Source of the DNA: Candidatus Staskawiczbacteria bacterium RIFCSPHIGHO2_02_FULL_42_22
GTDB taxonomy: Bacteria > Patescibacteriota > Minisyncoccia > Minisyncoccales > Staskawiczbacteraceae
Reading direction: 5' to 3'
Assembly (NCBI GenBank): GCA_001820175.1
Contig: MHOT01000010.1
Location: 8,578 to 72,577 of the forward strand
DNA length: 64,000 nt
Made by a program: the position numbers and the translations under genes. Below, piece by piece: positions 1,374 through 59,054 of this stretch. The notes beneath the pieces are model-generated. The model did no database searches. It was not told the origin of the DNA and saw only the letters and a program-made list of their open reading frames with translations. Numbering within the stretch: position 1 is the stretch's first letter; every line of letters begins with the position of its first letter.

Positions 1374-2525
1374 ATGAAAGAAGCAGTTTCCAAGCAAAAA
1401 ACGAGCGACTCGGTAATTCCCCCATCTATCGGTTCTATTGTAGAGGGAAAATTAATCGCCCGCGACCGGTCTTCTATTTTTATTGATTTAGGGCCGCAAG
1501 GAACCGGCATCATTTTTGGCCGAGAATTTTATGAGGTAAAAGATGCTATTAAAAACCTACAAATTGGCGATATTATCCACGCCAAAATCGTAGAACTGGA
1601 AAACGAAGAGGGCTACCGCGAATTATCACTGCAAGATGCCACTAAAGATATTAACTGGCAGAAATTACGCGAAATGAAAGATAATCAGGAAATTATCAAG
1701 GTGAAAATCACCGGGGTTAACAAAGGAGGACTGCTTACCAACATCAATAATATTGCGGCTTTCTTGCCGGTATCACAGTTATCTCCAGAAAATTATCCTA
1801 GGGTAACCGATGCCGATAAAGCCAAAATATTAAAAGAACTGCAAAAATTTATTGGCAAAACCTTGGAAGTAAAAGTGCTGGATTTGTTGGCTGAAGAAAA
1901 TAAGCTGATTTTGTCGGAAAAAGCCAAGACCGAACAGGCCATCAAGCAAATGCTCAATAACTACAAAAAGGGAGACGTGGTGGATGGAAAAATTACTGGC
2001 ATTGCTGATTTTGGAGTGTTTATTCGTTTTCCGCTCGCAGCGGAAAACGCGCAGAACAATGCGGAAATTAACCCTCCTTCGCCAGATGCTTCGGCGGGGC
2101 AAGGCGCGGAAAAACGCGGAAAAGACGATAGCATTGAAGGATTAATCCATATTTCTGAATTGGACTGGCAACTAGTTCAAAACCCCTCTGAAATTGTAAA
2201 AGTGGGAGAAATAATAAAAGCGCAGATTATTGATATTCACAATAACCAAGTATTTTTGTCGCTTAAATCGCTAAAAGAAAATCCTTGGGAAAAAATTGAA
2301 AAAGAGCATAAAAAGGGAGACATAATTAAGGGAAAAGTCATCAGTTTTAGCCCATTTGGCGCGTTTGTGGAAGTGATGCCAAAAATCCGGGGCCTCTGCC
2401 ACATTTCCGAATTTGCCAGCCAGAAGGAAATGGAGGACTCGCTAAAACCCGGCGAAATGTACGATTTTGAAATTTTGTTGATTGAACCAAAAGAGCACCG
2501 AATGAGCTTGAAATTGGTAAAATAA
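1374..2525 (+). CDS. rpsA: 30S ribosomal protein S1 (multi S1-domain)
   Basis: Repeated S1 RNA-binding domain signatures (G.IV.G.V..I....IFIDLG, GVFIRF...EGLIHISEL, FGAFVEV...GLCHISEF). Confidence 0.9.
   Translation: MKEAVSKQKTSDSVIPPSIGSIVEGKLIARDRSSIFIDLGPQGTGIIFGREFYEVKDAIKNLQIGDIIHAKIVELENEEGYRELSLQDATKDINWQKLREMKDNQEIIKVKITGVNKGGLLTNINNIAAFLPVSQLSPENYPRVTDADKAKILKELQKFIGKTLEVKVLDLLAEENKLILSEKAKTEQAIKQMLNNYKKGDVVDGKITGIADFGVFIRFPLAAENAQNNAEINPPSPDASAGQGAEKRGKDDSIEGLIHISELDWQLVQNPSEIVKVGEIIKAQIIDIHNNQVFLSLKSLKENPWEKIEKEHKKGDIIKGKVISFSPFGAFVEVMPKIRGLCHISEFASQKEMEDSLKPGEMYDFEILLIEPKEHRMSLKLVK
2031..2124 (+). repeat. In-frame repeat insertion inside an S1 domain (partner copy at 12258-12323)
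   Basis: Encodes AENAQNNAEINPPSPDASAGQGAEKRGKD between FIRFP and IEGLIHISEL; shares atgcggaaattaaccct and gcgcggaaa..cgcggaaaa with the copy in the MutY-like gene. Confidence 0.6.
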
Positions 2526-2585: not shown

Positions 2586-3446
2586 ATGAAAAATATTGTA
2601 ATTCCAAAGACAAATAACTCATCTCTTATTGCTCAATTAGGATCTTTTTATAATGCTTTTAAAAATATTACATTTGGAGAAAAAGTAATTATTGATGCAT
2701 CCTCATTGAATTGGGCACATCCTCTTTTAATATTACCTATAAGTGCTTATATTAACGAAACTCGAAGCGAAATCAATACGGATGACTGTAATGGTAATAT
2801 AAAATCATATTTAGAAATGATAAAATTCCCTAAGGGTGTGAATTCTATATCTTCTTTTCAAAAACAAATACAAAAATATAAGACATATATACCCATAAGC
2901 GTCTTACATAAGGAAAGCACTGTTGATAGGGAACGACTAGAATCACTATTTTCTGAAAAAATTTATGAAATTCTCGGGAATATACCAGGAGCCGAAAATG
3001 CAGTATTTTACCCAATATCAGAACTCATAACTAATATTTTTGAACATAGTAAAAAGGAACAGGGTTTTATTTTTGGACAATTTTATCCCAGTAAGAAATA
3101 TTTAGATGTCTGCATCGTTGATTGTGGCAGAGGATTTGCTAAGGCATACAAAGAAGAGCAAAACTTAGAATTATCAGATCAAGAAGCAATAATAGAAGCA
3201 ATGAAGGGTAATTCTATCAAAAAAGACAAAGAAAGAGGTTATGGTTTAAGAACTTCGAAAAACGTGATATGTAAGGCATTAAAGGGTGGAGGATTTATTC
3301 TTATTTCCGGTTCTTCTGCCCTTGTTTCTACAGAACAAGGGGAAAGATTAGTCTATTTAAAAGATTTCTATTGGCAAGGGACTATTATCGCCTATAGAAT
3401 ACCAAAACCCAATGGCCCCATTGACATATCTCCATACATAGAATAA
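2586..3446 (+). CDS. GHKL-type ATPase / RsbW-SpoIIAB-like serine kinase fold protein
   Basis: N-box ELITNIFEHS, G1 box DCGRGF, G2 box GYGLRTS in canonical order; about 27% GC over the first 60 nt. Confidence 0.65.
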   Translation: MKNIVIPKTNNSSLIAQLGSFYNAFKNITFGEKVIIDASSLNWAHPLLILPISAYINETRSEINTDDCNGNIKSYLEMIKFPKGVNSISSFQKQIQKYKTYIPISVLHKESTVDRERLESLFSEKIYEILGNIPGAENAVFYPISELITNIFEHSKKEQGFIFGQFYPSKKYLDVCIVDCGRGFAKAYKEEQNLELSDQEAIIEAMKGNSIKKDKERGYGLRTSKNVICKALKGGGFILISGSSALVSTEQGERLVYLKDFYWQGTIIAYRIPKPNGPIDISPYIE

Positions 3447-3489
3447 CAATATCTATTGTGGTATAATAACATTGAGCAATTAAAGATCT

Positions 3490-3858
3490 ATGAAAAATAA
3501 AAGCCATAATTTCATCACAATTAAGATAAGTAAATTATTGGCTCCTATTATAAGTTCTCGTGATGTAGCCAATGTATTGGAGGATAAAATAAATGAAACT
3601 GATACAACATCAGTAGTTTTGGATTTTAATAATATTAAATTCGTTTCTCGTTCAGCAACTCACTCATTGCTTGTATTGAAAGAAAAAATTGAAACCAATA
3701 TACCTAGGAGAGAATTGTCTTTCATTAATGCTAATAATGATGTTAAAGAAATGATTCGTACCGTAGCATCTAATAGGGCTTTCCCAAAAAAAGAAACGCC
3801 GGAATTTAATCCAGAAAAAACCGACATCGCTTCGCTATTAGAAGAAGCTGCCTTCTAA
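3490..3858 (+). CDS. STAS-like domain protein (DUF4325-like)
   Basis: SRDVANVLEDKI....VVLDFNNIKFVSRSATHSLL pattern typical of STAS-like DUF4325; sits directly after the GHKL gene. Confidence 0.55.
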   Translation: MKNKSHNFITIKISKLLAPIISSRDVANVLEDKINETDTTSVVLDFNNIKFVSRSATHSLLVLKEKIETNIPRRELSFINANNDVKEMIRTVASNRAFPKKETPEFNPEKTDIASLLEEAAF

Positions 3859-3879
3859 TTTTAGGACATTTTATTAAGG

Positions 3880-4029
3880 AGATGGAAGAATCCCTAAAAC
3901 CCGGCGAAACGTACGACTTTGAAATTTTATTGATTGAACCCAAAGAACACCGAATGAGCTTGAAATTGGTAAAATAATGCAATCCGCGCACCCAAAAAAT
4001 CCGCTTCTGCGGATTTTTTGGTATAATGA
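3880..4029 (+). repeat. Direct repeat, right copy (pseudo rpsA 3' end EMEESLKPGETYDFEILLIEPKEHRMSLKLVK* + terminator + TGGTATAAT)
   Basis: Aligns to 2428-2578; no upstream S1 coding sequence, so it is a gene-end remnant. Confidence 0.85.
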
Positions 4030-4033
4030 AACC

Positions 4034-4438
4034 ATGGAAAAAGAAATTATGTATACGGCAAAATTTGTAAGAGATCCTGAATTATTATTAAGAAAATTTC
4101 CACCAAAACATGTTCGTATATTTGCCCATCACTCCACAATTGCTTTTAAACCTAAAAATGTCGATGGCATAGAAATAGGTAGAAAATCGTTGATGAAAAT
4201 CATAGGCCGGGCTTACGATGAAAAAGGCGATGCCCTACTAGTTGAAAATCCCATATCAGAAAATGAATATCCCCACATTACTCTTTCCTGTGCCGATAAC
4301 GTGCCCCCTTTTTACTCAAATGAATTATTGAAAAAAGCTAGTGAAAATAACACGATAGAACATTTTGATGCACCGGAAGAAATTGAAGTGATTGAAGGAT
4401 ATTTCGATGGCAAAAACGAGGTTATTGAAAAAAAATAG
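4034..4438 (+). CDS. Possible 2H-phosphoesterase-like protein
   Basis: Two H-x-T/S-x motifs (AHHSTIAF and PHITLSC) spaced as in 2H/LigT-type enzymes. I start at ATG 4034 because the tracked ORF start (3977) lies in the duplicated terminator. Confidence 0.4.
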   Translation: MEKEIMYTAKFVRDPELLLRKFPPKHVRIFAHHSTIAFKPKNVDGIEIGRKSLMKIIGRAYDEKGDALLVENPISENEYPHITLSCADNVPPFYSNELLKKASENNTIEHFDAPEEIEVIEGYFDGKNEVIEKK

Positions 4439-4448
4439 TAAAATAATA

Positions 4449-4480
4449 CCCCGCCGATTCAACCGAATCAGCGGGGTTTT
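4449..4480. terminator. Bidirectional terminator hairpin between convergent genes
   Basis: ccccgc cgattcaaccgaatca gcgggg tttt. Confidence 0.6.
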
Positions 4481-4482
4481 GG

Positions 4483-5361
4483 TTACGAAACCTTCGAAAC
4501 ATTCACTATCTTGGGCGGGCTCCCATGCTTTTTGCCAAAGGAAACCGCTTCAAAGTAGGAGATCACGTCTCCCCTATGAAGTTGGACGATTCCTTCGGCA
4601 TCCGGCGGTTCCATGACGTCGATGCCATGAACCCATGTACTGGAACCGTCGTGGAGCTTGACAATGCCCTGGCCGGTTTGACCGCCAAAGCACGTATACC
4701 AATCCACGACTGCGAAACCACGATCGGGCACCGGCAGTGGCGGATCCAGTTCTTCGGCCACTCTTCTCCATGGCTGAAGTTCAGCGTCTTGCATAAGTTG
4801 CTGAAAATCAGGCACTTCCAAGATCATTTTACGGGATTCAAACGAACCCCACGTATGGTCTTTGGGCCGGCCGACGACACGAACGCCATCCTGGAAAAGC
4901 TTTCCCTTCCAGCGGTACTCACCGTGGAGCCGCCAGGTCTTGCCGTCGTCGTGGGTGATGATCCCTACTTGGAAAAGCCGGATTGAACCATCATGGTCCA
5001 AATGCCAGCAATCCAAACGGTTGGGATTGTCGCTATGCCAGTTGGTCCAGACGTTTTTTCCCGCGCGCTTGACCTGAATGGGATCGTGCATCATGCATAG
5101 ATCATACCGATCCACCAAATCAGGGAAGTCAGTCAAAGCGTTTTTACTGTAACCTCCCTTTTCCTGGCCGACGTTTTTCTGGACGACGACGGTTCTGCCA
5201 TGCTTTGGCAGGAGCACCGCCAGGTAGAACCCTGTGGGGTTGACACCCCTGGGGACCGAAATGATTCCCTGGTCGCTGACTTCAAGATACGTTTCGATCT
5301 TGTTGGCCAGCGAAACCGAAGCCCGAATATTTGGATCAGTAAAAAAGCGAATCGTTTCCAT
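4483..5361 (-). CDS. Hypothetical protein (GC-rich orphan)
   Basis: 292-aa ORF; about 57% GC in a 60-nt sample; no recognised motif. Confidence 0.5.
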   Translation of the reverse strand: METIRFFTDPNIRASVSLANKIETYLEVSDQGIISVPRGVNPTGFYLAVLLPKHGRTVVVQKNVGQEKGGYSKNALTDFPDLVDRYDLCMMHDPIQVKRAGKNVWTNWHSDNPNRLDCWHLDHDGSIRLFQVGIITHDDGKTWRLHGEYRWKGKLFQDGVRVVGRPKDHTWGSFESRKMILEVPDFQQLMQDAELQPWRRVAEELDPPLPVPDRGFAVVDWYTCFGGQTGQGIVKLHDGSSTWVHGIDVMEPPDAEGIVQLHRGDVISYFEAVSFGKKHGSPPKIVNVSKVS

Positions 5362-5484
5362 GGGAAACTCCTTAATGGCAAAAACTTTTTTGCAACAAGC
5401 AGAAAAGAATTTACCAAGCCAATTGTCAACGTGCTTTCATCCCCGCATTTGCATTTTTAAAAATGCAAACGCGGAGATGAAATA

Positions 5485-6453
5485 TTATGCCATATATCTG
5501 GGCAGGGCCTCTCTCATTGCCTCCTTAATTCTTGTAATAGAAATTTTAGTGGGCTCAACCCCTTTGGGATTGGCACCGCCATTCAGCAAGGAATTAGTTG
5601 CCCTATCATAGTACCATTCGGAAACACTTTCCAATTTCCCTGGTTTCATTAACTCAATTGGCGGATATTCTATATTTTTTCCCTTTAATTGCAACTCTTC
5701 GTCTCGTAAATAGGCCGCCAGCCATCGTAAATCAACTCTTTTAAATTGCTTAGTTAAAATATTAGTATAACCCGAAGTTTTTCTTTGGCACACCACATCG
5801 GCTTTTAACCCTATCGATGACTTAAGCCATCCGGGCATGCTTACATTATCGGATTCCAGTGCCACGATTTTTAATTTTTTCCCGCGTTGTTTTACCTCAA
5901 AAATTTCTGCCTTTCCAGCCCGTAAATATTTTTCGAATTCTTGAGGTAATTCGCTGGTTCTTTTTCTTTCTTCTAAGTAATGGGCCTCAAGCAACGGAAA
6001 AACGATATCAAGGATTCTTGCCGGACTTTCCGTGGTTTTATTTAAAGAAGAAATTAAACCCGATAATCCAAACGTTCTATCAAGCTGATCAGTAGAAATA
6101 GTCCCGACACCGTGCTTATCGTCTCGCTCAGCATATGCCAGCAATTTTAAAATGGCTGGATCTTCCATAACACCCACGTCCAAAGACACCAATTCAGAAA
6201 GTATTTTTCCTTTTTGGTGATGATCAAGATCGCCTCCGCCTACGTCCAAGCAGATAATACCCTTTTCTTTCAAAGAATCACTGGTTTCACCTTCTTGCAA
6301 TGCCTGACGTATTTCAATTTCCGCATTTTCAATTCCTGGATACTTGGTGCTACCAAATTTTTTTAGCAGGAAAATGCCCAAAATGGTATCGGGGTGTAGG
6401 GAGCTTGGAATAATGATTTTATAGTAATTGGGAACTGTCATATACTTTAACAT
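5485..6453 (-). CDS. MYG1/UPF0160-like metal-dependent hydrolase (tentative)
   Basis: SSLHPDTILGIFLL and CLDVGGGDLDHHQKG resemble the HxDE and DVGG...DHHQ motifs of the MYG1 family. Confidence 0.4.
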   Translation of the reverse strand: MLKYMTVPNYYKIIIPSSLHPDTILGIFLLKKFGSTKYPGIENAEIEIRQALQEGETSDSLKEKGIICLDVGGGDLDHHQKGKILSELVSLDVGVMEDPAILKLLAYAERDDKHGVGTISTDQLDRTFGLSGLISSLNKTTESPARILDIVFPLLEAHYLEERKRTSELPQEFEKYLRAGKAEIFEVKQRGKKLKIVALESDNVSMPGWLKSSIGLKADVVCQRKTSGYTNILTKQFKRVDLRWLAAYLRDEELQLKGKNIEYPPIELMKPGKLESVSEWYYDRATNSLLNGGANPKGVEPTKISITRIKEAMREALPRYMA

Positions 6454-6525
6454 ACTTTATCAAATAAAATTACTTTTGTCAATACCAAATTATTTGACAA
6501 TACCACTAATTAATTATACTATCAA

Positions 6526-7098
6526 ATGCAAAGAGGCGTTCTTTTACAATTTTTCTGGGGGCAAAAAGTGTCTAACAATATTGTTTTTCTGGGTGACTGG
6601 TCCAACCTCAAAAGAGGAGAACTGGACAATGATTACAAGCCAGCAGAGTATGATAAAGAGGCCGGTTTTAAGCGATTGAAAGATTTTCTTTTTGATATTG
6701 CTACGCCAACATTGTGTAGCATTTACACTCCGTTGCACGACATCTATGGCCATTTTGAGTTTTTGCGGGATCAGGGGTTTACCATTGTATTGTGCCCGAT
6801 AGTATGGTCAACCTCAACTGATACCACTGATCAAAAACTTACCATGGACGCTTTAAATTTAATAGAAAATTACGATATGCAATATCTTTGTTTGGGTAGC
6901 GGAGATGGTCACTTCAAGGATGTGCTCCAAGCCGCCAAAGCCAAAGGCATCAAAGTAGCGGTGGTATATGGAAGTGAACGATCGCTATCTGCAGAAATTC
7001 GGGCTATGGTAGACACATATCCCGAAGGCCATCCAAAAAAAGGGCAGAAAATGCTCCATATGTTTTCTCCCACCCGGCAGCCTTTATTGACAAGGTAG
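6526..7098 (+). CDS. NYN-domain (LabA/DUF88-like) putative ribonuclease
   Basis: TDQKLTMDAL and LGSGDGHFKDVLQAAKAKGIKVAVV motifs; true start may be GTG 6568. Confidence 0.6.
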   Translation: MQRGVLLQFFWGQKVSNNIVFLGDWSNLKRGELDNDYKPAEYDKEAGFKRLKDFLFDIATPTLCSIYTPLHDIYGHFEFLRDQGFTIVLCPIVWSTSTDTTDQKLTMDALNLIENYDMQYLCLGSGDGHFKDVLQAAKAKGIKVAVVYGSERSLSAEIRAMVDTYPEGHPKKGQKMLHMFSPTRQPLLTR

Positions 7099-9040: not shown

Positions 9041-9210
9041 GCAAAAAATCGCCGAAACTCCTTCTTGAAATATATTTTTTAACGTGATACGATAATGCTA
9101 ATTCAAAATTTAAAAATCAAAATTCAAAGTTAATGCATCGCCTCCGGCGGTTATTTTTAATTTTACACTGCCATTTTGCATTTTGAGATTTGCATTTTGC
9201 ATTTATCATT

Positions 9211-11094
9211 ATGAAATTAAACCCTTTACTTAAAAATTTTATTTTCGTCATATTAATTCTGCTGGTCATCGGCGGTGTCTTTAGCTTGCTGTATTTACCG
9301 GCCGAAAAACAAAACCAAATATCCATTTCGCAACTAGTCCAAGACATTAATGCCGAAAAGGTGAAAAAAATCGATGTTTCCGGTGATGCCATTAAAATAA
9401 CCTATACCGATGATAAAACCGCCCAGTCCATGAAAGAATCGAATTCGGTCCTAGCCGATGTATTGACTAATTTGGGCGCCGACTCCGCCAAGCTGCAAAA
9501 AGTGGAAATAAGCGCTTCAACGGTTCAAGAAAGCGTTTGGTCATGGTTGCTTCCCGCACTACTGTATGGCATTTTGCCGCTGGTGTTAATTGGGTTTTTC
9601 TTGTGGACCATGATGCGACAGGCACGATCCGGAGCTGGCCAAGTATTTGACTTTACCCGATCAAAAGCTAGAATTTTTGGCGCGGATCCTAACAACAAAG
9701 AAAAAATCACCTTTAAAGATGTGGCGGGACTCAAAGAAGCTAAAGAAGAGTTAATGGAAATTGTGGACTTTTTAAAGTTCCCAAAAAAATACTTGGCCAT
9801 GGGAGCAAAGGTACCAAGGGGTGTTTTATTATTGGGTAGCAGCGGCGTTGGAAAAACAATGCTTGCAAGAGCAGTCGCCGGTGAAGCCAACGTGCCATTT
9901 TTTAGTATTTCCGGATCTGAATTCGTAGAAATGTTTGTGGGGGTAGGTTCGGCCAGAGTACGGGATTTGTTTTCCACCGCTAAAAAGGCCTCTCCTTCCA
10001 TTATTTTCATTGACGAACTAGATGCCATCGGCCGGCACCGCGGAGCCGGCATTGGCGGAGGCCACGACGAACGCGAACAAACCCTCAACATGATTTTAGT
10101 GGAAATGGACGGCTTCCAGAAAGATACGGGCGTTTTGGTGTTTGCAGCAACGAATCGCGGAGATATTTTAGACCCTGCGCTTTTGCGACCCGGGCGGTTT
10201 GACCGAAAAATTATTTTAGATAATCCTGATGTGCACGATCGCGAAGCTATTTTACAAATTCATTCAAAAGAAAAACCACTGGCTTCAAACATTAACTTTA
10301 AAGAAATTGCCGAACGCACACCTGGTTTTTCTGGTGCTGATTTGGCTAATGTAGCCAATGAAGCAGCATTACTAGCCGCGCGGCAAAATAAAACCCAGGT
10401 ATTCCAGGATGACTTTTTGGAAGCGATTGAAAAAGTGCTTTTGGGACCTGAAAGAAAAAGCCATATTTTATCCAAAAAAGAAAAAGAAATTACGGCTTAT
10501 CACGAAGCCGGTCACGCGCTGGTTTCTAGCAGCATTCCCGGAACCGACCCTATCAGAAAAATATCTATTATATCTCGAGGCATGGCGGGCGGATACACAT
10601 TTCAAGTGCCATCGGAAGACAATAAAATGCGCACCAAAACCCAATTTTTGGCTGAAATTGCAACGCTTATGGGAGGGTTTAGCGCCGAACGCCTGGTGTT
10701 TGGAGAAATGAGCACGGGGGCCAGCAATGACTTGGGGAAAGCGTCGCACCTGGCCCGCAAAATTGTCAAAGAATGGGGCATGTCTTCCCTGGGACCCATT
10801 TCATTTGGCGACAAAGAAGAAATGGTATTTTTGGGCCGGGAAATTTCAGAACAAAGAAATTACTCGGAAGCCGTGGCCGAAAAAATTGACAAAGAAATCG
10901 AAACCATTTTACGCAGCGCCGAAAAACGGGCGACTGAAATTGTGGCCAAGCGCCGTGATATGCTGGAAAAAATCGCCAAAATATTAGTGGAAAAAGAAAC
11001 GATAGAACGAGAAGAGTTTGAGAAGATTATCGGAAACGGAAAATCCCAAATTCCAAATCACAAATCCCAAATAAACTCCAAATCCAAAAAATAA
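9211..11094 (+). CDS. ftsH: ATP-dependent zinc metalloprotease FtsH
   Basis: Walker A GSSGVGKT, SRH region, HEAGHA zinc motif. ATG 9211 preferred over TTG 9190. C-terminal tail KSQIPNHKSQINSKSKK is encoded by word repeats. Confidence 0.95.
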   Translation: MKLNPLLKNFIFVILILLVIGGVFSLLYLPAEKQNQISISQLVQDINAEKVKKIDVSGDAIKITYTDDKTAQSMKESNSVLADVLTNLGADSAKLQKVEISASTVQESVWSWLLPALLYGILPLVLIGFFLWTMMRQARSGAGQVFDFTRSKARIFGADPNNKEKITFKDVAGLKEAKEELMEIVDFLKFPKKYLAMGAKVPRGVLLLGSSGVGKTMLARAVAGEANVPFFSISGSEFVEMFVGVGSARVRDLFSTAKKASPSIIFIDELDAIGRHRGAGIGGGHDEREQTLNMILVEMDGFQKDTGVLVFAATNRGDILDPALLRPGRFDRKIILDNPDVHDREAILQIHSKEKPLASNINFKEIAERTPGFSGADLANVANEAALLAARQNKTQVFQDDFLEAIEKVLLGPERKSHILSKKEKEITAYHEAGHALVSSSIPGTDPIRKISIISRGMAGGYTFQVPSEDNKMRTKTQFLAEIATLMGGFSAERLVFGEMSTGASNDLGKASHLARKIVKEWGMSSLGPISFGDKEEMVFLGREISEQRNYSEAVAEKIDKEIETILRSAEKRATEIVAKRRDMLEKIAKILVEKETIEREEFEKIIGNGKSQIPNHKSQINSKSKK

Positions 11095-11788: not shown

Positions 11789-12676
11789 ATGCAAAAAGAA
11801 CGCATTAAAAAATTCCAGAAACTTGTTTGGGATTTTTATCAAAAAAACAAACGTGAGTTTGCCTGGCGCAAAACCCGTGATCCTTACAAAATCCTGGTTT
11901 CCGAAATCATGCTCCAGCAAACCCAGGCCGACAGGGTGATCAGATTCTATGAAAAGTGGATTAACCGCTTCCCTAACTTCAAGGTCCTTGCAAGTGCCAA
12001 ATTTAGCGAAATATACCCCTTCTGGCAGGGACTGGGTTACAACAGGCGCGCGCTTGCACTCAAGCGCGCGGCGGAAAAATCCGTCAAAGAATTTGACGGA
12101 AAACTACCGGCCGAAATTGAAAAACTGGAAGAATTTCCCGGCATTGGGCCATACACTGCCCGTGCCATCAGCATTTTTTCTTTTAATACACCTGTTGCTT
12201 GCATTGAAACGAATATTCGTCGGGTATTTATTCATCATTTTTTCGCTGAAAAAATATCGCGGAAAGATGCGGAAATTAACCCTTCGGCTCCGCTCAGGGC
12301 GAGCGCGGAAACGCGCGGAAAAAAGATAAACGACGAGCAGATTTTAGAAATTGCACAGCGGGCTTTGCCAGCTGGCAAAGCCCGTCAATGGCACTGGGCC
12401 TTAATGGACTACGGCGCTTATTTAAAGTCCACTGTGCCCAATCCCAACCGCCGCCATAAAAACTACAACGTCCAATCAAAATTCGAGGGCTCGTTACGCC
12501 AAATCCGCGGCACTGCGTTAAAGATACTTTCGGCCAAAAAAATGGACTGTGACGAGTTAGTTGAAAGATTAAAAAAAGCAACGTTGCAAACCAAGGAAAG
12601 AATCAAAAAAGTAATTTTAGCGCTAGAAAAAGAAGGGTTAATAAAGTCCCGTAAGAAAATTTATTCTTTAAAATAA
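11789..12676 (+). CDS. HhH-GPD DNA glycosylase, MutY/EndoIII-like
   Basis: DPYKILVSEIMLQQTQ, GLGYNRRA, FPGIGPYTARAI helix-hairpin-helix; no C-terminal Cys cluster visible. Confidence 0.75.
   Translation: MQKERIKKFQKLVWDFYQKNKREFAWRKTRDPYKILVSEIMLQQTQADRVIRFYEKWINRFPNFKVLASAKFSEIYPFWQGLGYNRRALALKRAAEKSVKEFDGKLPAEIEKLEEFPGIGPYTARAISIFSFNTPVACIETNIRRVFIHHFFAEKISRKDAEINPSAPLRASAETRGKKINDEQILEIAQRALPAGKARQWHWALMDYGAYLKSTVPNPNRRHKNYNVQSKFEGSLRQIRGTALKILSAKKMDCDELVERLKKATLQTKERIKKVILALEKEGLIKSRKKIYSLK
12258..12323 (+). repeat. In-frame repeat insertion (partner of 2031-2124)
   Basis: Encodes RKDAEINPSAPLRASAETRGKK; shares a 17-nt identical string atgcggaaattaaccct with the rpsA copy. Confidence 0.6.
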
Positions 12677-12680
12677 TAAC

Positions 12681-12809
12681 CCCTCACTCTCCTGCACGCA
12701 TCCGTCGTCATTGCGAGGAGCCACAGCAACGAAGCAATCTAGAGCAAAGCTATGCACATACCCTAGATTGCCACGCCTGCGGGCTCGCAATGACGAGAAG
12801 CGTGAGGGA
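12681..12809. repeat. GTCATTGCGAG repeat, copy R2 (outer arms ccctcac/gtgaggg)
   Basis: Read directly. Confidence 0.8.
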
Positions 12810-12824
12810 TTACTTAAAATAGGA

Positions 12825-12853
12825 TTGACAAGTACATATCCGTTGTATACACT
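12825..12853 (+). promoter_or_regulatory. Promoter of toxin-antitoxin operon
   Basis: TTGACA, 17 nt spacer, TACACT. Confidence 0.5.
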
Positions 12854-12881
12854 TATGGTATATTATAATTAACCACACATC

Positions 12882-12917
12882 ATACTCTAATTTTAACGAT
12901 CGTTAAAATTAGAGTAT
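12882..12917. promoter_or_regulatory. 36-bp perfect palindrome, probable TA operator
   Basis: atactctaattttaacgatcgttaaaattagagtat, 10 nt upstream of the antitoxin start. Confidence 0.6.
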
Positions 12918-12926
12918 ATCAAAACT

Positions 12927-13199
12927 ATGAAAACTACGATGCATATAAAAGTTGATAAGGATATTAAAGAAAAATCTGCCAAAATAGCCCGTAACTTGGG
13001 ATTATCTTTGAGTACTATTGTTAATGCCTCTTTGCGCAATTTCATTAAAACTGAAACTTTTAGCGTAAGCAATGCGGAACGAATGACTCCCTACATGGAA
13101 AGCTGGATTGCAGAAGTAGAAGAGGATATAAAACACAACAGAAATTTTAGTGGTCCCTTTCATTCTGTTGCTGAAATTAAAAAACACTTTGAAAAATGA
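12927..13199 (+). CDS. RelB/DinJ-family antitoxin
   Basis: N-terminal ribbon-helix-helix-like MHIKVDKDIKEKSAKIARNLGLSLSTIVN; ATGA overlap with the toxin gene. Confidence 0.7.
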   Translation: MKTTMHIKVDKDIKEKSAKIARNLGLSLSTIVNASLRNFIKTETFSVSNAERMTPYMESWIAEVEEDIKHNRNFSGPFHSVAEIKKHFEK

Positions 13200-13456
13200 A
13201 GATTCTATTCAACAAGAGGTTTGATAAAACATTTAAAAAGATGCCGCTAAAGCTGCGTATAAAATTCTATCAACAAATTGAATTATTTCAGGAAAATCCA
13301 ACCAACCAACAGCTAAACAATCACGCACTCTCGGGGCAATACTTTGGTTATCGAAGTATTGATGTAAGCGGTGATGTAAGAGCCATTTTTAAGGAAACAG
13401 ATATTAACACCGTCAGATTTATGGATATTGGCACCCATAGCCAACTATACGGATAA
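13196..13456 (+). CDS. RelE/YafQ-family mRNA interferase toxin
   Basis: 86 aa; F.K.FKK.P..L..K......F..NP....L..H.L.G....RSIDVSGDVRAIF pattern. Confidence 0.7.
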   Translation: MKILFNKRFDKTFKKMPLKLRIKFYQQIELFQENPTNQQLNNHALSGQYFGYRSIDVSGDVRAIFKETDINTVRFMDIGTHSQLYG

Positions 13457-13488
13457 AACTTACGGCTAATTCGTGCGAATTAGCCCAT

Positions 13489-13564
13489 GCGCGGTTAGCT
13501 CATTTAGCAGAGCGCATCGTTGACGTCGATGAGGTAATAGGTGCAATTCCTATACCGCGCACCA
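13489..13564 (+). tRNA. tRNA-Val, anticodon GAC (CCA encoded)
   Basis: Acceptor GCGCGGT/ACCGCGC, anticodon stem CATCG/CGATG, loop TTGACGT, T loop TGCAATT. Confidence 0.8.
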
Positions 13565-13584
13565 AAAAATATTTTTATAAAAAG

Positions 13585-14205
13585 ATGGAACACAATCTTT
13601 CAGAACCAAAATCAGAATTAGAAACACCGGAAAATTTCTTTTCGATAGATGAATTGGAAAAATTTCGAGAAGAGTTTTTTGAGAAAAATGACGTTCATTC
13701 GCAAGAGAATTCAAGAAAAGTGCATTTGGATTTCATAAAAGACCTCATTGATAATCGAGAAAGGTTTCAATACATTTTTGAAACGGAAAAGGGTTCCATT
13801 TATTTCGTTTTGCATTCAGGGGAAACAATGAGAATTAAAAAACACAAACCCGGTATTTGGCCAGGCGATTATCAAATTCAAAATTTCACGAAAAGAATAT
13901 TTTTTATTGATGCTTCAGAGGAAAATCGCTTAAAAGCAATGATATTGGAAGATAATAAAAAAGAAAACATCAACAAATTAGTCGGGAAAAAAATATTTTT
14001 AACAGAGCTGCGCGAAGGAGTTATCCCAATTGAAGTAGATGTAGTAGATTTATGGGAGGATGAAGAGCATGGAAGAAGGGCTATATTTGAATTTCGCGAT
14101 AATAAGATCGTTTTTAAGGGTGATAAAATCGGAGGTAGTATTAATGAAAAAAGCATTGGGCTTGTACACTTTGGTCATCCCATTTTTAAGATTATAAAAC
14201 AATAA
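13585..14205 (+). CDS. Hypothetical protein
   Basis: 206-aa low-GC ORF. Confidence 0.45.
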   Translation: MEHNLSEPKSELETPENFFSIDELEKFREEFFEKNDVHSQENSRKVHLDFIKDLIDNRERFQYIFETEKGSIYFVLHSGETMRIKKHKPGIWPGDYQIQNFTKRIFFIDASEENRLKAMILEDNKKENINKLVGKKIFLTELREGVIPIEVDVVDLWEDEEHGRRAIFEFRDNKIVFKGDKIGGSINEKSIGLVHFGHPIFKIIKQ

Positions 14206-14242
14206 GAAATATGTTAACCGGGTCGCAACAAATTAATATCCC

Positions 14243-14443
14243 ATGAAAACAACGTTTAAAAACCCAAAATTGGACTGGTGCAAGGATGAATTAAAGACAC
14301 TCTTAGAAAAACTAATCGAGAATAATTACCATACCACGGCGGAATTTGTGTTTGACCATATTGCCCACACCGGCGTGGACACTGACCTGCAGCCCGAATT
14401 AAAAAAAGAACCAGCGCTCGAAGAATTTTTAAAAAGCGAGTAA
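14243..14443 (+). CDS. Hypothetical small protein
   Basis: 66-aa ORF. Confidence 0.3.
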   Translation: MKTTFKNPKLDWCKDELKTLLEKLIENNYHTTAEFVFDHIAHTGVDTDLQPELKKEPALEEFLKSE

Positions 14444-14448
14444 GCACT

Positions 14449-14574
14449 ATGGATCTTCAAATACTATACGAAGATAGTGAAGCGATGGTAATATATAAGC
14501 CAGCGGGAGTGGTTTTTGAAGAAGGGGAAAATCCTTCGACAAACTTAAGTATAAACCAGGGGAAATTATTTTGA
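14449..14574 (+). pseudogene. Orphan 5' fragment of an RluA-family pseudouridine synthase gene
   Basis: Hand translation MDLQILYEDSEAMVIYKPAGVVFEEGENPSTNLSINQGKLF* parallels the N-terminus of the intact gene at 15860 (MELQIPYEDNDMLAIEKPAGVV). Confidence 0.6.
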
Positions 14575-14584
14575 CTCTAACTAT

Positions 14585-14746
14585 TAGACCTGTTGCGTAA
14601 TAAGATTAACAAGCGAAATGAAGCAATTTTGGCTAAAAAATCAGAAAAATAAGGAGGTTTGCCTAGAGGGCAAGCCGACGCATTTTTATGGTTTTTTAGA
14701 CGAAATTGCAAATTACAGCGTAAATTCTTATTACGCAACAGGTCTA
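14585..14746. mobile_element. MITE, TAGACCT family (A1)
   Basis: TIRs tagacctgttgcgtaataag / cttattacgcaacaggtcta; core gaggtttgcctagagggcaagccg shared in reverse with 19656-19862. Confidence 0.8.
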
Positions 14747-14764
14747 TTAAATAATAATTAAATT

Positions 14765-15682
14765 ATGAATCCGGAAAATCTAGAAACTAGAGACCGAAAT
14801 GAGTCCGACTTGGGGGTTATAGTATTTGAAATAGAAAATTTATTGCCTACTCAAAAATTTGATAAAAAAATATTTCCCAGGAACGAAAAACCGATTGGAG
14901 AAATGATGAAGCTTTCAAATGGACTAAGAGAATCAATACTGCCAGAGGGTGGGCTAAACATATCTTCTGCTGATCAGATAGATGAAATAACTTTAGACCT
15001 TTATAATTTATGGAGGGATGCCCAGTTTTCATTGGGATTTCAAAAAATATTAGAAAACAAAAAAATAATTCCACGGGAATCTTTTTTTATCGGAGATATT
15101 GGTTCAGCTCATTGCATATCAGTGGGATTGGCCATGATGAATAACAATATACCTTGTAATTTTGTTTTTAAAAAAGATATAGGACCCAGAGTAAAAGATA
15201 TGATGTTACTTATCGGTGACGAATTAAATAATAGAAATAAAATAACTGTTCCCGCAGGCGCCGCTACATTAACGGATTGCCATCGAAATGAACCCTATAA
15301 ACCGAGGGAGAAAAAATATAGTATTCAACCCTCGGATTTCCCTGCGCCAGAAGAATTAAAAAATAAGGGTATTACACAGATTGTGCTTCTTAAAGAAGTA
15401 GAAACTGGAAGGGAATTTCATAACTTTGAATATCCATCAGACGATAATTCGGTATTGAATCCATATAAATTAAGTGGAATGGAAATTATTACTATAGGAA
15501 TTGATGAGGTATGGCGATACAATTCCGTGCATGGCGGTGAAAAGGATCGCGAACTATTTGGAAGGGACATAAATTCACAGCGTTCTCTTAAAGAAGCATT
15601 AAAATCTATAATTACAGTAGGGGATCGCAAAAAATTATGTGATTTATTGTCTGGTAGAAATATTGAAAAAATTAATCCTTAG
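14765..15682 (+). CDS. Hypothetical protein (low-GC, bracketed by two MITEs)
   Basis: 305-aa ORF; stop codon lies inside the TIR of the next MITE. Confidence 0.5.
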   Translation: MNPENLETRDRNESDLGVIVFEIENLLPTQKFDKKIFPRNEKPIGEMMKLSNGLRESILPEGGLNISSADQIDEITLDLYNLWRDAQFSLGFQKILENKKIIPRESFFIGDIGSAHCISVGLAMMNNNIPCNFVFKKDIGPRVKDMMLLIGDELNNRNKITVPAGAATLTDCHRNEPYKPREKKYSIQPSDFPAPEELKNKGITQIVLLKEVETGREFHNFEYPSDDNSVLNPYKLSGMEIITIGIDEVWRYNSVHGGEKDRELFGRDINSQRSLKEALKSIITVGDRKKLCDLLSGRNIEKINP

Positions 15683-15840
15683 GCCTCGTCCGTAAATAAC
15701 GTCCACCTTTTCATCCAATCTGCCCGCCATCTTGGCTCCAAAAAATGCTCGGCATAACTTTATTATGCCTCACATTTTTTTGAGCCAAGGCGACAGGCAT
15801 CTTGGCGAAAATCCTGGACGTTATTTACGGACGAGGCCTT
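15681..15840. mobile_element. MITE (AGGCCTCGTCCGTAAATAACGTCC TIRs)
   Basis: aggcctcgtccgtaaataacgtcc...ggacgttatttacggacgaggcct. Confidence 0.75.
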
Positions 15841-15859
15841 AGATATTGAAGATATATAA

Positions 15860-16606
15860 ATGGAACTTCAAATACCATATGAAGACAATGATATGCTCGC
15901 CATAGAAAAGCCGGCGGGGGTGGTGGTTTTTAATGAAGCCGCCGCGCCCGCTGGCGCGGCGGCTAAAACAGTCATTGATATGCTTTTAGAAGCGCGTCCT
16001 AACCTAAAAAATGTAGGCGAAGCGCCGCGGTATGGGGTCGTGCATCGGCTCGATAAAGACACCTCCGGCATCCTTTTGGTGGCAAAAACGGCCGATGCCT
16101 TGATTTTTTTGCAAAAACAGTTTAAAAATAGAGAGGTAGAAAAGAAATACACCGCCTTGGTAGAGGGTATCATAAAAGAACCATGGGGTACCATTCATAC
16201 CTTGATGGGTAGGGCTAAAGGGGATCCGCGAAAGCAAAAGGCCTACGCATTGGAATTACCAATATCCAATACCCAATTTCCAAAAAATGTGGCGGGAAAA
16301 AGAGAAGCCATTACCGATTATAACGTATTGAAAAAATTTACTGGTTATGCGTTACTGGAAGTTAAGATAAAAACTGGCCGAAAACACCAGATACGCTGCC
16401 ATTTAGCGTATATTCATCATCCGGTAGCCGGAGACACATTGTATGGATTTAAAGATTCACCGGTGCCAAAGGGGTTAGCAAGACAATTTCTGCATGCATC
16501 ATATTTAAAAATTACATTACCAAGCGGAGAAACTAAAGAATTTAAGTCGGAATTACCAGAAGAGTTGCAAACAATAATTAAGAATATGGAATCTGGTATC
16601 TTGTAG
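15860..16606 (+). CDS. RluA-family pseudouridine synthase (no S4 domain)
   Basis: KPAGVVV, catalytic HRLDKDTSG, GRKHQIRCHL. Confidence 0.85.
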   Translation: MELQIPYEDNDMLAIEKPAGVVVFNEAAAPAGAAAKTVIDMLLEARPNLKNVGEAPRYGVVHRLDKDTSGILLVAKTADALIFLQKQFKNREVEKKYTALVEGIIKEPWGTIHTLMGRAKGDPRKQKAYALELPISNTQFPKNVAGKREAITDYNVLKKFTGYALLEVKIKTGRKHQIRCHLAYIHHPVAGDTLYGFKDSPVPKGLARQFLHASYLKITLPSGETKEFKSELPEELQTIIKNMESGIL

Positions 16607-21913: not shown

Positions 21914-22214
21914 ACCTGTTGCGTATTAAGGATTTGCTGCAAATTGCATATTGCACCTGCGGGGATGCCCTGCGGGTCAAGGGCTGAAAATTTGCTATAC
22001 CTAGTATAATTTGTCGCTCGTTCGAAAAAGAATAATTGCTATTCTTCTTTTTCTCTCTCGCTTAGCAAATTATAATTTTTCGGTCAAGATGTGGGTAAAT
22101 TTGTAGCAACAAATTTCCCCATCTCCGGGCCTATGGGCAAGCCGAAAAATTCTATCAAATTTGCAGCTCGAAATCTTGAATTTTCGTAACAAACCTTATT
22201 TAGGGACAGGTCTA
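21911..22214. mobile_element. Chimeric/nested MITE, TAGACCT family (A3)
   Basis: Left TIR of the gttgcgtattaag type, right TIR of the ccctaaataag type; carries an extra about 80-nt module that recurs inverted at about 44360-44440. Confidence 0.75.
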
Positions 22215-22223
22215 ATACTGTTT

Positions 22224-26104: not shown

Positions 26105-26292
26105 AGGGTAACCCCTCTGTTCACCACCGTCATTGCGAGGAGTCCTGAACCGGAGACGGGGCGAATTTGTTGCGACAAATTACGCCTCGCGTCTGGACAG
26201 TGAAGGGCGACGTGGCAATCTCGTCGTTGTGTACGGAGATTGCTTCGTCATCTGCGCCTTCCTCGCAATGACGGTAGGTGCGAGGGGGTTAC
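26105..26292. repeat. GTCATTGCGAG repeat, copy R3 (outer arms gggtaacccctc/gagggggttac)
   Basis: Read directly. Confidence 0.8.
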
Positions 26293-29653: not shown

Positions 29654-29794
29654 ATGATGCCAAAGTAAGATCCGTTTCGCTCGAACGGATCTTTTATATT
29701 ACTTGTCTAAATGTAAATTTTAAAGATTGCTTCGCTGCGGCTCGCAATGACGGTTTAGAATAATTAGGTCAATTAGTATAATTAGAATAATTCG

Positions 29795-33365: not shown

Positions 33366-33550
33366 AAATCGTCATTGCGGGGTGCACCGAAGCAGGGTAC
33401 AATACTGCACCCTGCGAAGCCAGGCATAGTATTGTGCCTGGCGAAGCAATCCCATCGTCACTCTTGTTTAGATTGCCGCGTCGTCCACGATTGCGATCGG
33501 GACTCCTCGCAATGACGGCCGGAAGGCGCACGAGGTGTGAGGGGTTACGC
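33366..33550. repeat. GTCATTGCGAG repeat, copy R4
   Basis: cgtcattgcgggg...cgaagcaatc...ctcctcgcaatgacgg. Confidence 0.75.
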
Positions 33551-38454: not shown

Positions 38455-38553
38455 AAGTAAAAATGAAATTTCAAATTTCTAATTTCTAATTTCTAATAAT
38501 AAGGTGTCGAAATTTTCACAAAGGAAAATTTCGACGGATTTAATCATTTCAAA

Positions 38554-39069
38554 TTGATTTCAAATTTCAAATTTCAAATTACAAATTCCAGCAGAGGGTC
38601 TATTCTTTTGGAGGCGTTCATTGCCGTGATGGTCATCGGTATTGTTTTTGCGCTGCTGCTGGATGTCGCCGCCCTGTCACTTAAAACATCCACATTTGTG
38701 CGCCAGAGCAGCCAGGCCAATTTTATGGCCAAGGAGTCCATGGAAACCGTGCGGAGCTTTCGAGATGGAACAACTTGGGCCTCAAATGGTCTTGGAACTT
38801 TAAACACCGGAGCTGCCAATCCGTACTATTTTATCCTTAACACTGGGACAAACCCCGCAACCTGGACATTATCATCCGGAACAGAAACCGTAGGAATTTT
38901 TACCCGGAACATTGTTTTTGACAAAGTGTCGCGCGATCCTACCACTCAACACATTGAAAGCATCTATAATGCTTCTCATGATGACCCTAATACCCGGAGG
39001 GCTACCGTTACCGTCAGTTTTTTGTCAAAAACACTGACGTTAGTTAGCTATTTTACTAATTGGAAATAA
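38554..39069 (+). CDS. Pilin-like protein 2
   Basis: RG|SILLEAFIAVMVIGIVFALLL hydrophobic N-terminal helix with Glu5. Confidence 0.6.
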   Translation: MISNFKFQITNSSRGSILLEAFIAVMVIGIVFALLLDVAALSLKTSTFVRQSSQANFMAKESMETVRSFRDGTTWASNGLGTLNTGAANPYYFILNTGTNPATWTLSSGTETVGIFTRNIVFDKVSRDPTTQHIESIYNASHDDPNTRRATVTVSFLSKTLTLVSYFTNWK

Positions 39070-39697: not shown

Positions 39698-39698
39698 A

Positions 39699-39900
39699 TA
39701 GACCTGTTGCGTATTAAGGATTGTCGCGAAAATTGAAGATTTTGGATCAGAAATTTGATAGAATTTTTCGGCTTGCCTCCAGGCCCGGAGATGGGGAAAT
39801 TTGTTGCTACAAATTTACCCACATCTTGACCGAAAAATTATTGAAAATTTCTGGCCAAAAGATGCAATTTGCAGCAAATCCTTAATACGCAACGGGTCTA
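39699..39900. mobile_element. MITE, TAGACCT family (A4); inverted relative to A3 and lacking its nested module
   Basis: tagacctgttgcgtattaagg...ccttaatacgcaacgggtcta; starts 2 nt after the pilin stop. Confidence 0.8.
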
Positions 39901-41249: not shown

Positions 41250-41298
41250 CATTCCCCGGATTTCTTTATCAAGTATTTTAATGGTACAATAAAAAGAA

Positions 41299-41483
41299 AC
41301 TCTAAATTCTAAATCCTAAACTCTAAACAAATCACAAATTCCAATGTTCTAAATTTCAAACCGTTTTAGAATTTAGAGTTTAGAATTTAGAATTTCGTTT
41401 TCTTTTTAGGATTTAGAGTTTAGAATTTAGAATTTCGTTTTCTTTTTAGGATTTAGAGTTTAGAATTTAGGATTTCTTTTACG
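41299..41483. repeat. Word-stutter hairpin whose right arm is a roughly 40-bp unit repeated three times
   Basis: ttagRatttagagtttagaatttagRatttc(gttttc)ttt x3 facing ctctaaattctaaatcctaaactctaaac. Confidence 0.8.
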
Positions 41484-43880: not shown

Positions 43881-44188
43881 AATTCAACGTGTCAGAATTA
43901 TTTAAAGCAAAAAAAGATGCTATACGGAAAATTCCCTTTACTTTGGCATCCCATGCTTTTTTAATCATGGTATTTTTTATTTTTTTAGTTATAATGGTAG
44001 GAGCGCTTTTATTTTACCAACACGGCGTATGGTTGGCGCGAAAAGTACCGGAACCTGCCGGAACTATTGTTCGGTTCAACGAAGCGGCATACAAAGCCAT
44101 ATTGCAAGAATGGCAGGGTCGCCAACAATCCCTTGGCGAGCCCCTGGGCGAGAAATATATAAATCCTTTCTATAGCGTCACGCCATAA
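43877..44188 (+). CDS. Small membrane protein, pilus-cluster associated
   Basis: 103 aa, one TM segment, ATGA overlap with the preceding gene. Confidence 0.45.
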   Translation: MKFNVSELFKAKKDAIRKIPFTLASHAFLIMVFFIFLVIMVGALLFYQHGVWLARKVPEPAGTIVRFNEAAYKAILQEWQGRQQSLGEPLGEKYINPFYSVTP

Positions 44189-44261
44189 TAGAAAATCTAA
44201 ATCCTAAATTCTAAACTCTAAATTCTAAAACGGTTAGAGTTTAGAATTTGTTTGCAAACCG

Positions 44262-49910: not shown

Positions 49911-50086
49911 AATTATTCTAATTGCTCTAATTAACCTAATTATTCTAATCAATCCGCCGGCTGGCGGACCAAATAAGTGAATGCCTAATTTCTAAACCGT
50001 TTTAGAATTTAGAGTTTAGAATTTAGAGTTTCAAACTTGGGATTTGATTAGGTCAATTAGTATAATTAGGTTAATTAGAAATTAAC
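49911..50086. repeat. Nested word-stutter hairpin (AATTAG words outside, CTAAA words inside)
   Basis: aattattctaattgctctaattaacctaattattctaatc ... gattaggtcaattagtataattaggttaattagaaatt. Confidence 0.8.
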
Positions 50087-58840: not shown

Positions 58841-58982
58841 GAATTTGAAATTTGAAATTTACAATTTGAAATCAATACTAAATGTTTCAATGTTTTAATT
58901 TGAAAACACGACGTATTTAAACATTTTAAATTTCAAATATTTCAAATTGACTTCAAATTTCAAATTGTAAATTTCAAATTTT
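58841..58982. repeat. Word-stutter hairpin (GAAATTT/CAAATTT words)
   Basis: gaatttgaaatttgaaatttacaatttgaaatc ... gacttcaaatttcaaattgtaaatttcaaatt. Confidence 0.8.
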
Positions 58983-59054
58983 AATATTTTGTAAACAAAC
59001 AAAACTCAACTAACATGGTGAGTTTGACATACTTTCACGAATCTTAGAAAGATT

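Follow-up and report, generated by a model that had tools for sequence, protein, structure and literature searches.

Known elements and the repeat described here

Bacteria of the candidate phyla radiation (CPR) have very small genomes that are assumed to be streamlined. Here we describe a short mosaic repeat that is translated in frame within two unrelated housekeeping genes of such a bacterium from groundwater, Candidatus Staskawiczbacteria (Parcubacteria): the gene for ribosomal protein S1 (rpsA) and that for a MutY-like adenine glycosylase. Both lie on a 64-kb stretch of AT-rich DNA (41% GC), the whole of which is called the window below. Both segments are, in our view, likely to be copies of one small, non-autonomous repeat, which is dispersed at the DNA level in this Parcubacteria lineage and forms a disordered surface loop when translated.

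The Rickettsia palindromic elements (RPEs) are short palindromic repeats of about 100–150 bp with one conserved peptide per family (Ogata et al., 2000, in PMC10969869). Our repeat resembles them in occurring both between genes and in frame inside unrelated housekeeping genes, in being translated and apparently tolerated thanks to its place at the protein surface, and in inhabiting a small reduced genome; it differs in its length (24–90 nt), its non-palindromic coding copies, its separable modules and a core that is read in several frames (PMC10969869). Sequence similarity to RPEs is nil, and the host belongs to another phylum (CPR). The first-pass annotation of the window had named RPEs as the parallel, which holds for the presence of in-frame and intergenic copies in unrelated genes but not for palindromy: in five in-frame or full copies the DNA fold gave no significant hairpin against shuffled sequences (z −0.02 to −1.35), the ends are direct, and only the flank of the rpsA copy (z −2.8) and an intergenic variant on the metagenome contig L016 (z −4.7) fold well. 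Neither the length nor a single family peptide agrees (the composite is 66 nt long, about 90 nt in rpsA). Thus the repeat works like an RPE but is not one, since palindrome, size and single peptide all fail.

Intragenic MITEs (miniature transposable elements with inverted repeats), among them Coxiella QMITE1, ERIC/RU and the Anabaena MITEs, are small and non-autonomous and sometimes form in-frame fusions with open reading frames (ORFs) (PMC5896051, PMC2759123, PMC10969869). Our repeat is likewise small, non-autonomous and in frame within host ORFs, whereas MITEs have terminal inverted repeats, which are missing here, and target-site duplications, of which no consistent case was seen, and are usually longer than 100 bp; our copies have direct ends. 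Because the in-frame copies are non-palindromic and terminal inverted repeats are missing, the repeat is neither an RPE nor a MITE. Repetitive extragenic palindromes (REPs) and the bacterial interspersed mosaic elements of E. coli are palindromes that lie outside genes, carry a GTAG or CGTC foot and are built as mosaics of a GC-rich unit and short accessory motifs (PMC3733652). Such a mosaic is also seen here, and the same genomes carry CGTC-tagged hairpins with a core-like apex, but our repeat is untagged at both ends, lies within genes, forms no hairpins in its coding copies and lacks a palindrome of 20–40 bp.

Palindromic amphipathic repeat coding elements (PARCELs) form tandem domains, each of 25 residues, within surface proteins whose function is unknown (PMC2996958). 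Like our repeat they are horizontally scattered, repeat-coding DNA with symmetry at the DNA level; here, in contrast, single insertions sit in housekeeping enzymes. The GC clusters and byp elements of yeast mitochondria are short GC-rich mobile sequences of an AT-rich organellar genome that can sit in coding regions, and byp elements are skipped by the ribosome. Our repeat, too, is a short GC-rich sequence within coding regions of an AT-rich genome, but the yeast elements are organellar and byp elements are skipped, whereas here an open frame runs through and bypass signals are unneeded. In the papers covered by our literature search, such elements are undescribed for CPR genomes, in line with the first-pass annotation, which knew of no equivalent for this kind of genome; subscription journals lay mostly outside that coverage, and the absence is no proof.

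Host genes and shared segments

The two host genes are:

1374..2525, + strand: ribosomal protein S1 (rpsA), 383 aa, four S1 domains (Pfam S1, NCBIfam, homolog names)
11789..12676, + strand: HhH-GPD adenine-glycosylase-like protein, 295 aa (Pfam HhH-GPD)

Pfam S1 matches the first ORF in four stretches (E 7e-42), its homologs carry the S1 name at both JGI and NCBI, and its top NCBIfam models are all 30S ribosomal protein S1, every one of them under its curated cut-off. For the second ORF the top NCBIfam model is mutY, also under the cut-off (167.6 against 286.5 bits), and the closest solved homolog is an adenine DNA glycosylase (PDB 8uuc_A, E 8e-57). These matches uphold the first-pass assignment of the hosts. 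The 17-mer that it had found shared by them, ATGCGGAAATTAACCCT, occurs exactly twice in the window (2059–2075 and 12267–12283), both times on the + strand, and the shared motifs at the far end are present as it described, gcgcggaaaaacgcggaaaag at 2104–2124 and gcgcggaaacgcgcggaaaaaag at 12303–12325. It also had both peptides right but placed their starts slightly off: AENAQNN...KD is encoded by 2040–2126 and RKD...KK by 12260–12325.

That identity of this length cannot be chance, as had been argued, is true of the extended alignment but not of the 17-mer, which alone proves nothing because about 35% of first-order Markov simulations of a sequence of the window's size and composition contain a shared string of that length. 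Aligned with gaps, the two segments match over about 105 nt with 78 identities in 115 positions; searched against the window in full, this match has E 8.7e-9, and the second-best match E 0.18. The significance of the similarity lies in this alignment, in the confinement of the octamer CGCGGAAA (five occurrences in the window, all five within the two segments) and in copies elsewhere. Nor is the similarity an assembly artefact: the glycosylase is 100% identical to protein P0121 (Candidatus Staskawiczbacteria RIFCSPHIGHO2_02 by its NCBI name), which is found on 18 contigs, and P0001 and P0074 come from independent assemblies, P0074 (96% identical) having the rpsA insert too.

Architecture of the mosaic

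Both segments are copies of one dispersed DNA repeat, as first supposed, yet what they share is composed, as a mosaic, of modules that can separate, and is not a single unit. Aligned copies consist of a 5' arm, a GC-rich core and a 3' arm:

2050..2072, + strand: rpsA copy, 5' arm CGCAGAACAATGCGGAAATTAAC, two units; arm shared with the L018, L021 and L022 orthologs and with copies from other genes
2073..2105, + strand: rpsA copy, 33-nt GC-rich core CCTCCTTCGCCAGATGCTTCGGCGGGGCAAGGC; missing from the nearest orthologs with fetched DNA (L018, L021, L022), present in P0074
2106..2124, + strand: rpsA copy, 3' arm GCGGAAAAACGCGGAAAAG, two units (nhmmer profile, octamer positions)
12258..12280, + strand: glycosylase copy, 5' arm CGCGGAAAGATGCGGAAATTAAC; same arm at that site in ortholog L019
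12281..12304, + strand: glycosylase copy, 24-nt core CCTTCGGCTCCGCTCAGGGCGAGC, read PSAPLRAS; identical core in the KsgA copy of L016
12305..12325, + strand: glycosylase copy, 3' arm GCGGAAACGCGCGGAAAAAAG (nhmmer profile, octamer positions)

The consensus of the 5' arm is (C)CGCGGAAnnn(n)GCGGAAATTAAC and that of the 3' arm GCG..AA..CGCGGAAA, each arm being a pair of 10–12-nt CGCGGAA units in direct orientation around a core (glycosylase, 24 nt; rpsA, 33 nt). Only the arms look like tandem repeats or iterons, with two to four consecutive CGC[G/A]GA[A/T] units at a spacing of 10–12 nt; because this period is indivisible by three, every reading phase of the unit is used (SRK, AE and RGK). The ends of the element, CCGCGGAA... 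and ...CGCGGAAA, are direct, not inverted, the self-complementary CCGCGG giving only a trivial match of 5–6 nt, and the core alone forms a stem of at most 4–5 bp. The modules measure 24 and about 22 nt, and sizes overall vary (24, 44, 66 and about 90 nt). An Rfam scan of the window brought only tRNAs to the gathering score. Similar A-rich flanks accompany the copies in the window (GAAAAAATAT/GAAAAAAGAT) and that in L016 (AAAATAATA/AAAAATAACA) and are missing in L001, L004 and L007; A-runs are common in these genomes.

Copies in related genomes

The first-pass annotation had looked to further copies, coding and intergenic, and both kinds exist in relatives. Our searches comprised a genome-collection scan, a metagenome scan, an nhmmer profile and about 220 kb of related loci. 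The profile recovers both window segments and four copies in other genomes (E 1e-16 to 3e-21). Two of the copies, from the genome-collection scan, belong to the metagenome-assembled genome (MAG) CAZREI01, one in the C-terminal tail of NusA (L001, ...KNAEINPSTSSGQGAKSRGK) and one in an unannotated ORF of 472 aa that encodes an unknown protein (L004, ...NDAEINPSTSSGQGGEPRGN). The metagenome scan yielded a copy in frame in KsgA/RsmA (L016, IIPRNYAEINPSAPLRASAKQRGNK), the central 45 nt of which are identical to the glycosylase copy of the window, and an intergenic copy directly 3' of the stop codon of an ftsW/rodA-like gene (L007). The intergenic L016 variant with the strong hairpin is a partial copy behind pnp (12040–12135) that continues as inverted TTCCGC units, and an intergenic array of four units without a core occurs in CAZREI01 (L023 7070–7121, CCGCGGAATCACGCGGAAATTTACGCGGAATCACGCGGAAAAAAA).

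Coding copies are hence those in rpsA, the glycosylase, NusA, KsgA and the L004 protein, and spacer copies those in L007, L016 and L023. All five coding composites read AEINP...RG[KN], that is, in one frame, though four of the six frames are open. A Mur ligase in L007 has CGCGGAT-type arms, which are nearly perfect direct repeats, on either side of an 18-nt palindromic core. A profile search with the two window peptides among 1.84 billion representative proteins returned only three unrelated repeat proteins; since only these matched, the composite peptide is rare among cluster representatives, members hidden inside clusters being uncounted. Viral contigs gave no match to the pattern of the arms, and 11-nt CGCGGAA/CGCGGAT arrays in phage contigs of IMG/VR were rejected as relatives, for they resemble ordinary iterons and no homology was shown.

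CAZREI01 (L001, L004, L023) is labelled 'uncultured Candidatus Saccharibacteria' but is syntenic with the window at 72–80% nucleotide identity. As the window is from Staskawiczbacteria (Parcubacteria), this label looks wrong.

The glycosylase insertion site

The site and the insertion are delimited as follows:

12238..12254, + strand: T-run/A-run mini-palindrome TTTTTTC-gct-GAAAAAA (codons F-F-A-E-K), a recurrent insertion site directly 5' of the insert
12254..12319, + strand: insertion of 66 nt (22 codons), inferred by comparison with 8uuc and with orthologs free of the insert; the boundaries slide by a few bases within the A-run

Comparison of orthologs indicates that the glycosylase segment is a lineage-specific insertion, as the first-pass annotation had proposed, and that it is polymorphic. 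Most of about 100 parsed orthologs are insert-free and read FFxDKxxIxDxEIL, while 14 have an insert at exactly that position, of at least six sequence types. In a neighbour-joining tree of conserved columns, the insert-bearing proteins are scattered, each next to insert-free sisters. The solved homolog 8uuc lacks the 22 residues, and its HMMER alignment (8uuc_A) is interrupted around residues 165 and 178 of the query. One ortholog (L019) shares arms and site but encloses another core, 51 nt long and itself hairpin-forming, and four others have an array of CGCGGAT units there (RINADKNADLRGY). Empty sites in orthologs are T-run/A-run junctions formed by Phe and Lys codons, and in L025 such a junction is a perfect 10-bp palindrome, GAATTTTTTC-cgaa-GAAAAAATTC.

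The suggestion that the inserts form loops is supported by AlphaFold (AF2) models built on about 90 homologs each for the glycosylase and S1, in which both inserts are low-confidence loops between confident elements. The mean confidence (pLDDT) of the glycosylase is 91.6 but falls to 58–65 over residues 151–180, between helices 141–151 and 182–192; in S1 it is below 50 over residues 225–249, between strands E214–219 and E254–259 of domain 3.

Two further sites in the glycosylase are variable. One, aligned to window 12368–12390 (LPAGKARQ), reads LPADGRSGKAGLARVSPGNARK in P0138 and CPAKPWRSRE in P0129 and P0148, and has an extra segment of 17 residues in P0160; the other follows GAYLK and reads PLRDPRGR, which is core-like, in L025.

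The loop of ribosomal protein S1

The loop that holds the rpsA copy, and a palindrome at this locus, are delimited as follows:

2031..2138, + strand: expanded loop of S1 domain 3 (residues 220–255), between strands FGVFIRF and EGLIHI, holding the rpsA copy
2025..2049, + strand: perfect 11-bp palindrome CGTTTTCCGCT-cgc-AGCGGAAAACG, made up of the host codons R-F-P-L (left arm) and the first GCGGAAA unit (right arm)

Here the history differs from that of the glycosylase. The segment does sit between strands of domain 3, but it had been taken for an insert that splits an S1 domain and is no fresh insertion: all 116 parsed rpsA orthologs have 10–48 extra residues, of variable content, between FG[AV]FI[RK]F and IEGLIHISE. 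Lineage-specificity, expected of both segments, thus applies to the glycosylase insert, whereas the rpsA loop is expanded clade-wide. Because it is enlarged in every ortholog with varying contents, several recognisable repeat peptides among them, we regard the loop as an old, hypervariable landing zone. In three orthologs (L018, L021, L022) the arms are present but the 33-nt core is missing (AEINAEERGN and similar), and in CAZREI01 (L023) the same loop is filled by a sister array of CGCGGAT units, QPQINADSTQIDAD. The array of CGCGGAA/CGCGGAT units is common to a subclade, and the polymorphic part is the 33-nt core only.

DNA folding of 2025–2130, partly host codons, gives −25.8 kcal/mol, the significant value cited above for the rpsA flank. 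The perfect palindrome recurs in three orthologs, namely the window, L021 (784–808, 12 bp) and L018 (4589–4613, 11 bp), with two compensated positions at which synonymous substitutions on the R-F-P-L side go together with amino-acid replacements in the arm within the loop; it is missing in four more distant ones (L022, L023, L100, L101). On the basis of three sequences only, it could be a conserved mRNA or DNA hairpin or the footprint of quasi-palindrome correction. The S1 loop of one further ortholog (P0008) contains VIASEAKHS, seen at protein level only, which we take to be the typical peptide of the CGTC-tagged hairpin repeats described below.

The 24-nt core as a module

The core has the consensus CCTTCGnCnnnGCTCAGGGCrrGC, in all 24 nt or exactly eight codons, and is stop-free in five of six frames. 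It also occurs alone: at the glycosylase site of L026 (FFP-LRHSSGQA-KK), and as exact insertions of eight residues in HSP20 of L101 (NPSDPLRT, missing in the L100 ortholog) and in RluA of L101 (PSTSLGAS, missing in four orthologs). About 218 kb of loci from the lineage contain it also in UvrC and, in a glycosylase, at a second site. Since the core is read in different frames between copies (PSAPLRAS in the window, LRHSSGQA in L026), the conserved entity is the DNA and not the peptide. The core also ranges well outside this lineage, into many unrelated bacterial and viral contigs: the degenerate pattern CCTTCGRCNNNGCTCAGGGCRRGC hits 77 places in 71 IMG/VR contigs of 47–70% GC, for an estimated chance expectation of about 0.1; reading frames of the core are uninformative there, since these contigs, at about 62% GC, abound in long open frames. 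That the core is a free-standing, 'coding-compatible' mobile cassette, dropped repeatedly into A/T-run sites of CPR housekeeping genes, we regard as a long shot; the CGCGGAA arms might then serve it as a carrier or landing pad specific to the lineage.

The window also contains CGTC-tagged, GC-rich, REP-like hairpin repeats (CGTCATTGCGAGGAG... / ...CTCGCAATGAC) at 12706–12726, 26128–26148, 33370–33390, 43218–43268, 29722–29751, 39931–39960 and 43277–43306. The apex of such hairpins in relatives resembles the 24-nt core (L007 199–217, L016 2337–2355).

How the repeat may have spread

That this is a repeat at the DNA level follows from the differing frames of the core, the 45 identical nt shared by the glycosylase copy and L016, and the existence of intergenic copies. 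In the scheme that we propose, modules would insert at A/T-run sites that tend to form hairpins, for instance where Phe-Phe...Lys-Lys codons produce TTTTTCC...GAAAAAA, and where they leave the gene unbroken because their lengths (24 and 66 nt) are multiples of three and they contain no stops. Selection would then retain only copies in permissive loops and in the most hydrophilic frame. The insert peptide itself is most likely without function. Copying could proceed by templated repair or template switching at the hairpin-prone sites, with another copy as donor, and not by cut-and-paste transposition. We advance this mode of copying, rather than classical transposition, only tentatively, with clearly less than even confidence; it is favoured because both host sites are small palindromes, because the rpsA palindrome stays perfect through compensated changes, as expected from intrastrand template switching, and because the ends of the element are ragged and modular and a transposase signature was not seen.

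Several points weigh against a dispersed DNA repeat read through without function. No donor, enzyme or intermediate of copying was identified. Only about ten composite or arm copies turned up in the related loci and the two public scans, so that the family is small, and the proportions of coding and intergenic copies are poorly estimated from them; L007 and L016 may moreover be conspecific with the window, in which case there are fewer independent genomes. The frame bias of five out of five could mean that the peptide matters, and repeated use of the one glycosylase site could reflect tolerance alone, with no targeting. In rpsA, gain of the core or its loss in the relatives may account for the polymorphism, and as flanks are A-rich regardless, their similarity may or may not reflect target-site duplication.

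Among the alternatives, a MITE- or REP-like element moved by a trans-acting transposase (a DDE enzyme encoded by an insertion sequence, or a Y1 REP-associated one), with the arms as its recognised ends, is unlikely. The window and its relatives are indeed rich in other dispersed repeats (90–180 nt, 85–97% identity), CGTC-tagged GC hairpins with a core-like motif in the apex included, and the CCGCGG of the left end does make a trivial inverted terminus. However, the ends are direct and the in-frame copies lack a significant fold, consistent target-site duplications were not seen, no GTAG or CGTC tag is on the element, its sizes vary and its modules are found separately, and no transposase was identified in the window.

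We give still less credence to a local origin, by which slippage or duplication of the right arm of the host palindrome would have made the CGCGGAA arrays in place, their likeness between genes being due to convergence or occasional gene conversion. The 10–12-nt period of the units would suit slippage, as would the first rpsA unit, which exactly complements the host codons R-F-P-L, the variation of unit number among orthologs and the sister CGCGGAT array in the same loop of L023. Yet strings of 12–17 nt (GCGGAAATTAAC(CCT)), the order of units and the position of the core recur in unrelated genes and in spacers; GC-rich cores found alone elsewhere are beyond slippage; and arms at sites devoid of a TTTTCC host sequence are already seen in part, in KsgA, NusA and L004.

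A selected peptide module, AEINP...RG[KN] being a functional linear motif of nucleic-acid-handling proteins (S1, NusA, KsgA, the glycosylase), is very improbable. It would explain the shared frame, and its hosts all bind RNA or DNA, but it does not account for intergenic copies, for nucleotide identity above what conservation of a peptide requires or for cores in other frames; both inserts have low pLDDT, the protein search gave no real match, and most orthologs do without the insert. Chance similarity or an assembly artefact, for which the frequency of shared 17-mers in simulations had spoken, is already refuted by the extended alignment, the copies in other assemblies and data sets, the identical glycosylase on 18 contigs and the same rpsA insert in P0074.

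Two mechanisms were also considered and rejected: programmed ribosomal bypass between two CGCGGAAA repeats, because their 56-nt spacing would shift the frame and an open frame needs no bypass, and ectopic integration of CRISPR spacers as repeat-spacer-repeat, because the cores range from 18 to 51 nt and a unit spans no more than about 11 nt. A scan of the window for other in-frame GC-rich inserts as GC islands was too noisy, gene GC ranging from 34 to 48%.

Other repeats and insertions

For its size class, this genome has an unusual wealth of repeats. The last 100 nt or so of rpsA, with the terminator hairpin (AAAAAATCCGCttctGCGGATTTTTT) and a TATAAT box, are duplicated at 2424–2580 and 3876–4035 (1452 nt apart, about 90% identity), bracketing ORFs at 2586–3446 (weak HATPase_c_2 match) and 3490–3858 (no match), which looks like a two-gene insertion of about 1.45 kb between direct repeats of about 155 nt. 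Other cargo lies 3' of rpsA in relatives, for example AbiEii genes in L021. Inverted repeats of 175 nt (19984–20158 and 21365–21539, 97% complementary) flank a 389-aa ORF (20187–21356), and the whole may be a mobile unit. More dispersed repeats of 90–180 nt lie at 51916–52097, 22126–22216, 26138–26287, 39693–39787 and 19167–19338/38291–38462, some of them 85–96% identical to sequences in the metagenome contigs L007 and L016, which share no other genes with the window. AT-rich repeats with a period of 7–8 nt (TTTAGAAT/TTTAGAGT and ATTTCAAA types) form imperfect palindromes in spacers, also in L001, L007 and L016:

24897..24982, 41288..41480, 44186..44250, 49985..50050, 38468..38589, 58841..58984: AT-rich periodic repeats in window spacers

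In CAZREI01 (L023, contig 6), gyrA and ftsH contain inteins (3192–7067 and 12755–15946; Intein_splicing, LAGLIDADG), while ftsH of the window (9190–11094) and gyrA of L100 and L101 are intein-free. Inteins are a further layer of selfish insertions in the same housekeeping genes.

Implications

'Selfish DNA inside genes', known from Rickettsia, is also present in CPR, in a different, modular form: repeat DNA is translated here within essential and repair proteins (S1, NusA, KsgA, adenine glycosylase, HSP20, RluA). Inserts of this kind make CPR proteins look more divergent than they are and can lead their alignment, their domain assignment and phylogenies built on marker genes astray. If the core cassette were mobile, it would be among the smallest known mobile DNA units and would extend the lower size limit of mobile DNA; at that size it would require a vehicle out of the ordinary, for example template switching from REP-like hairpins or an intermediate that is single-stranded or an oligonucleotide. 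With at least six types of insert at one codon position, the glycosylase offers a natural experiment on the tolerance of proteins to insertions and on the spread of repeats without obvious transposase signatures.

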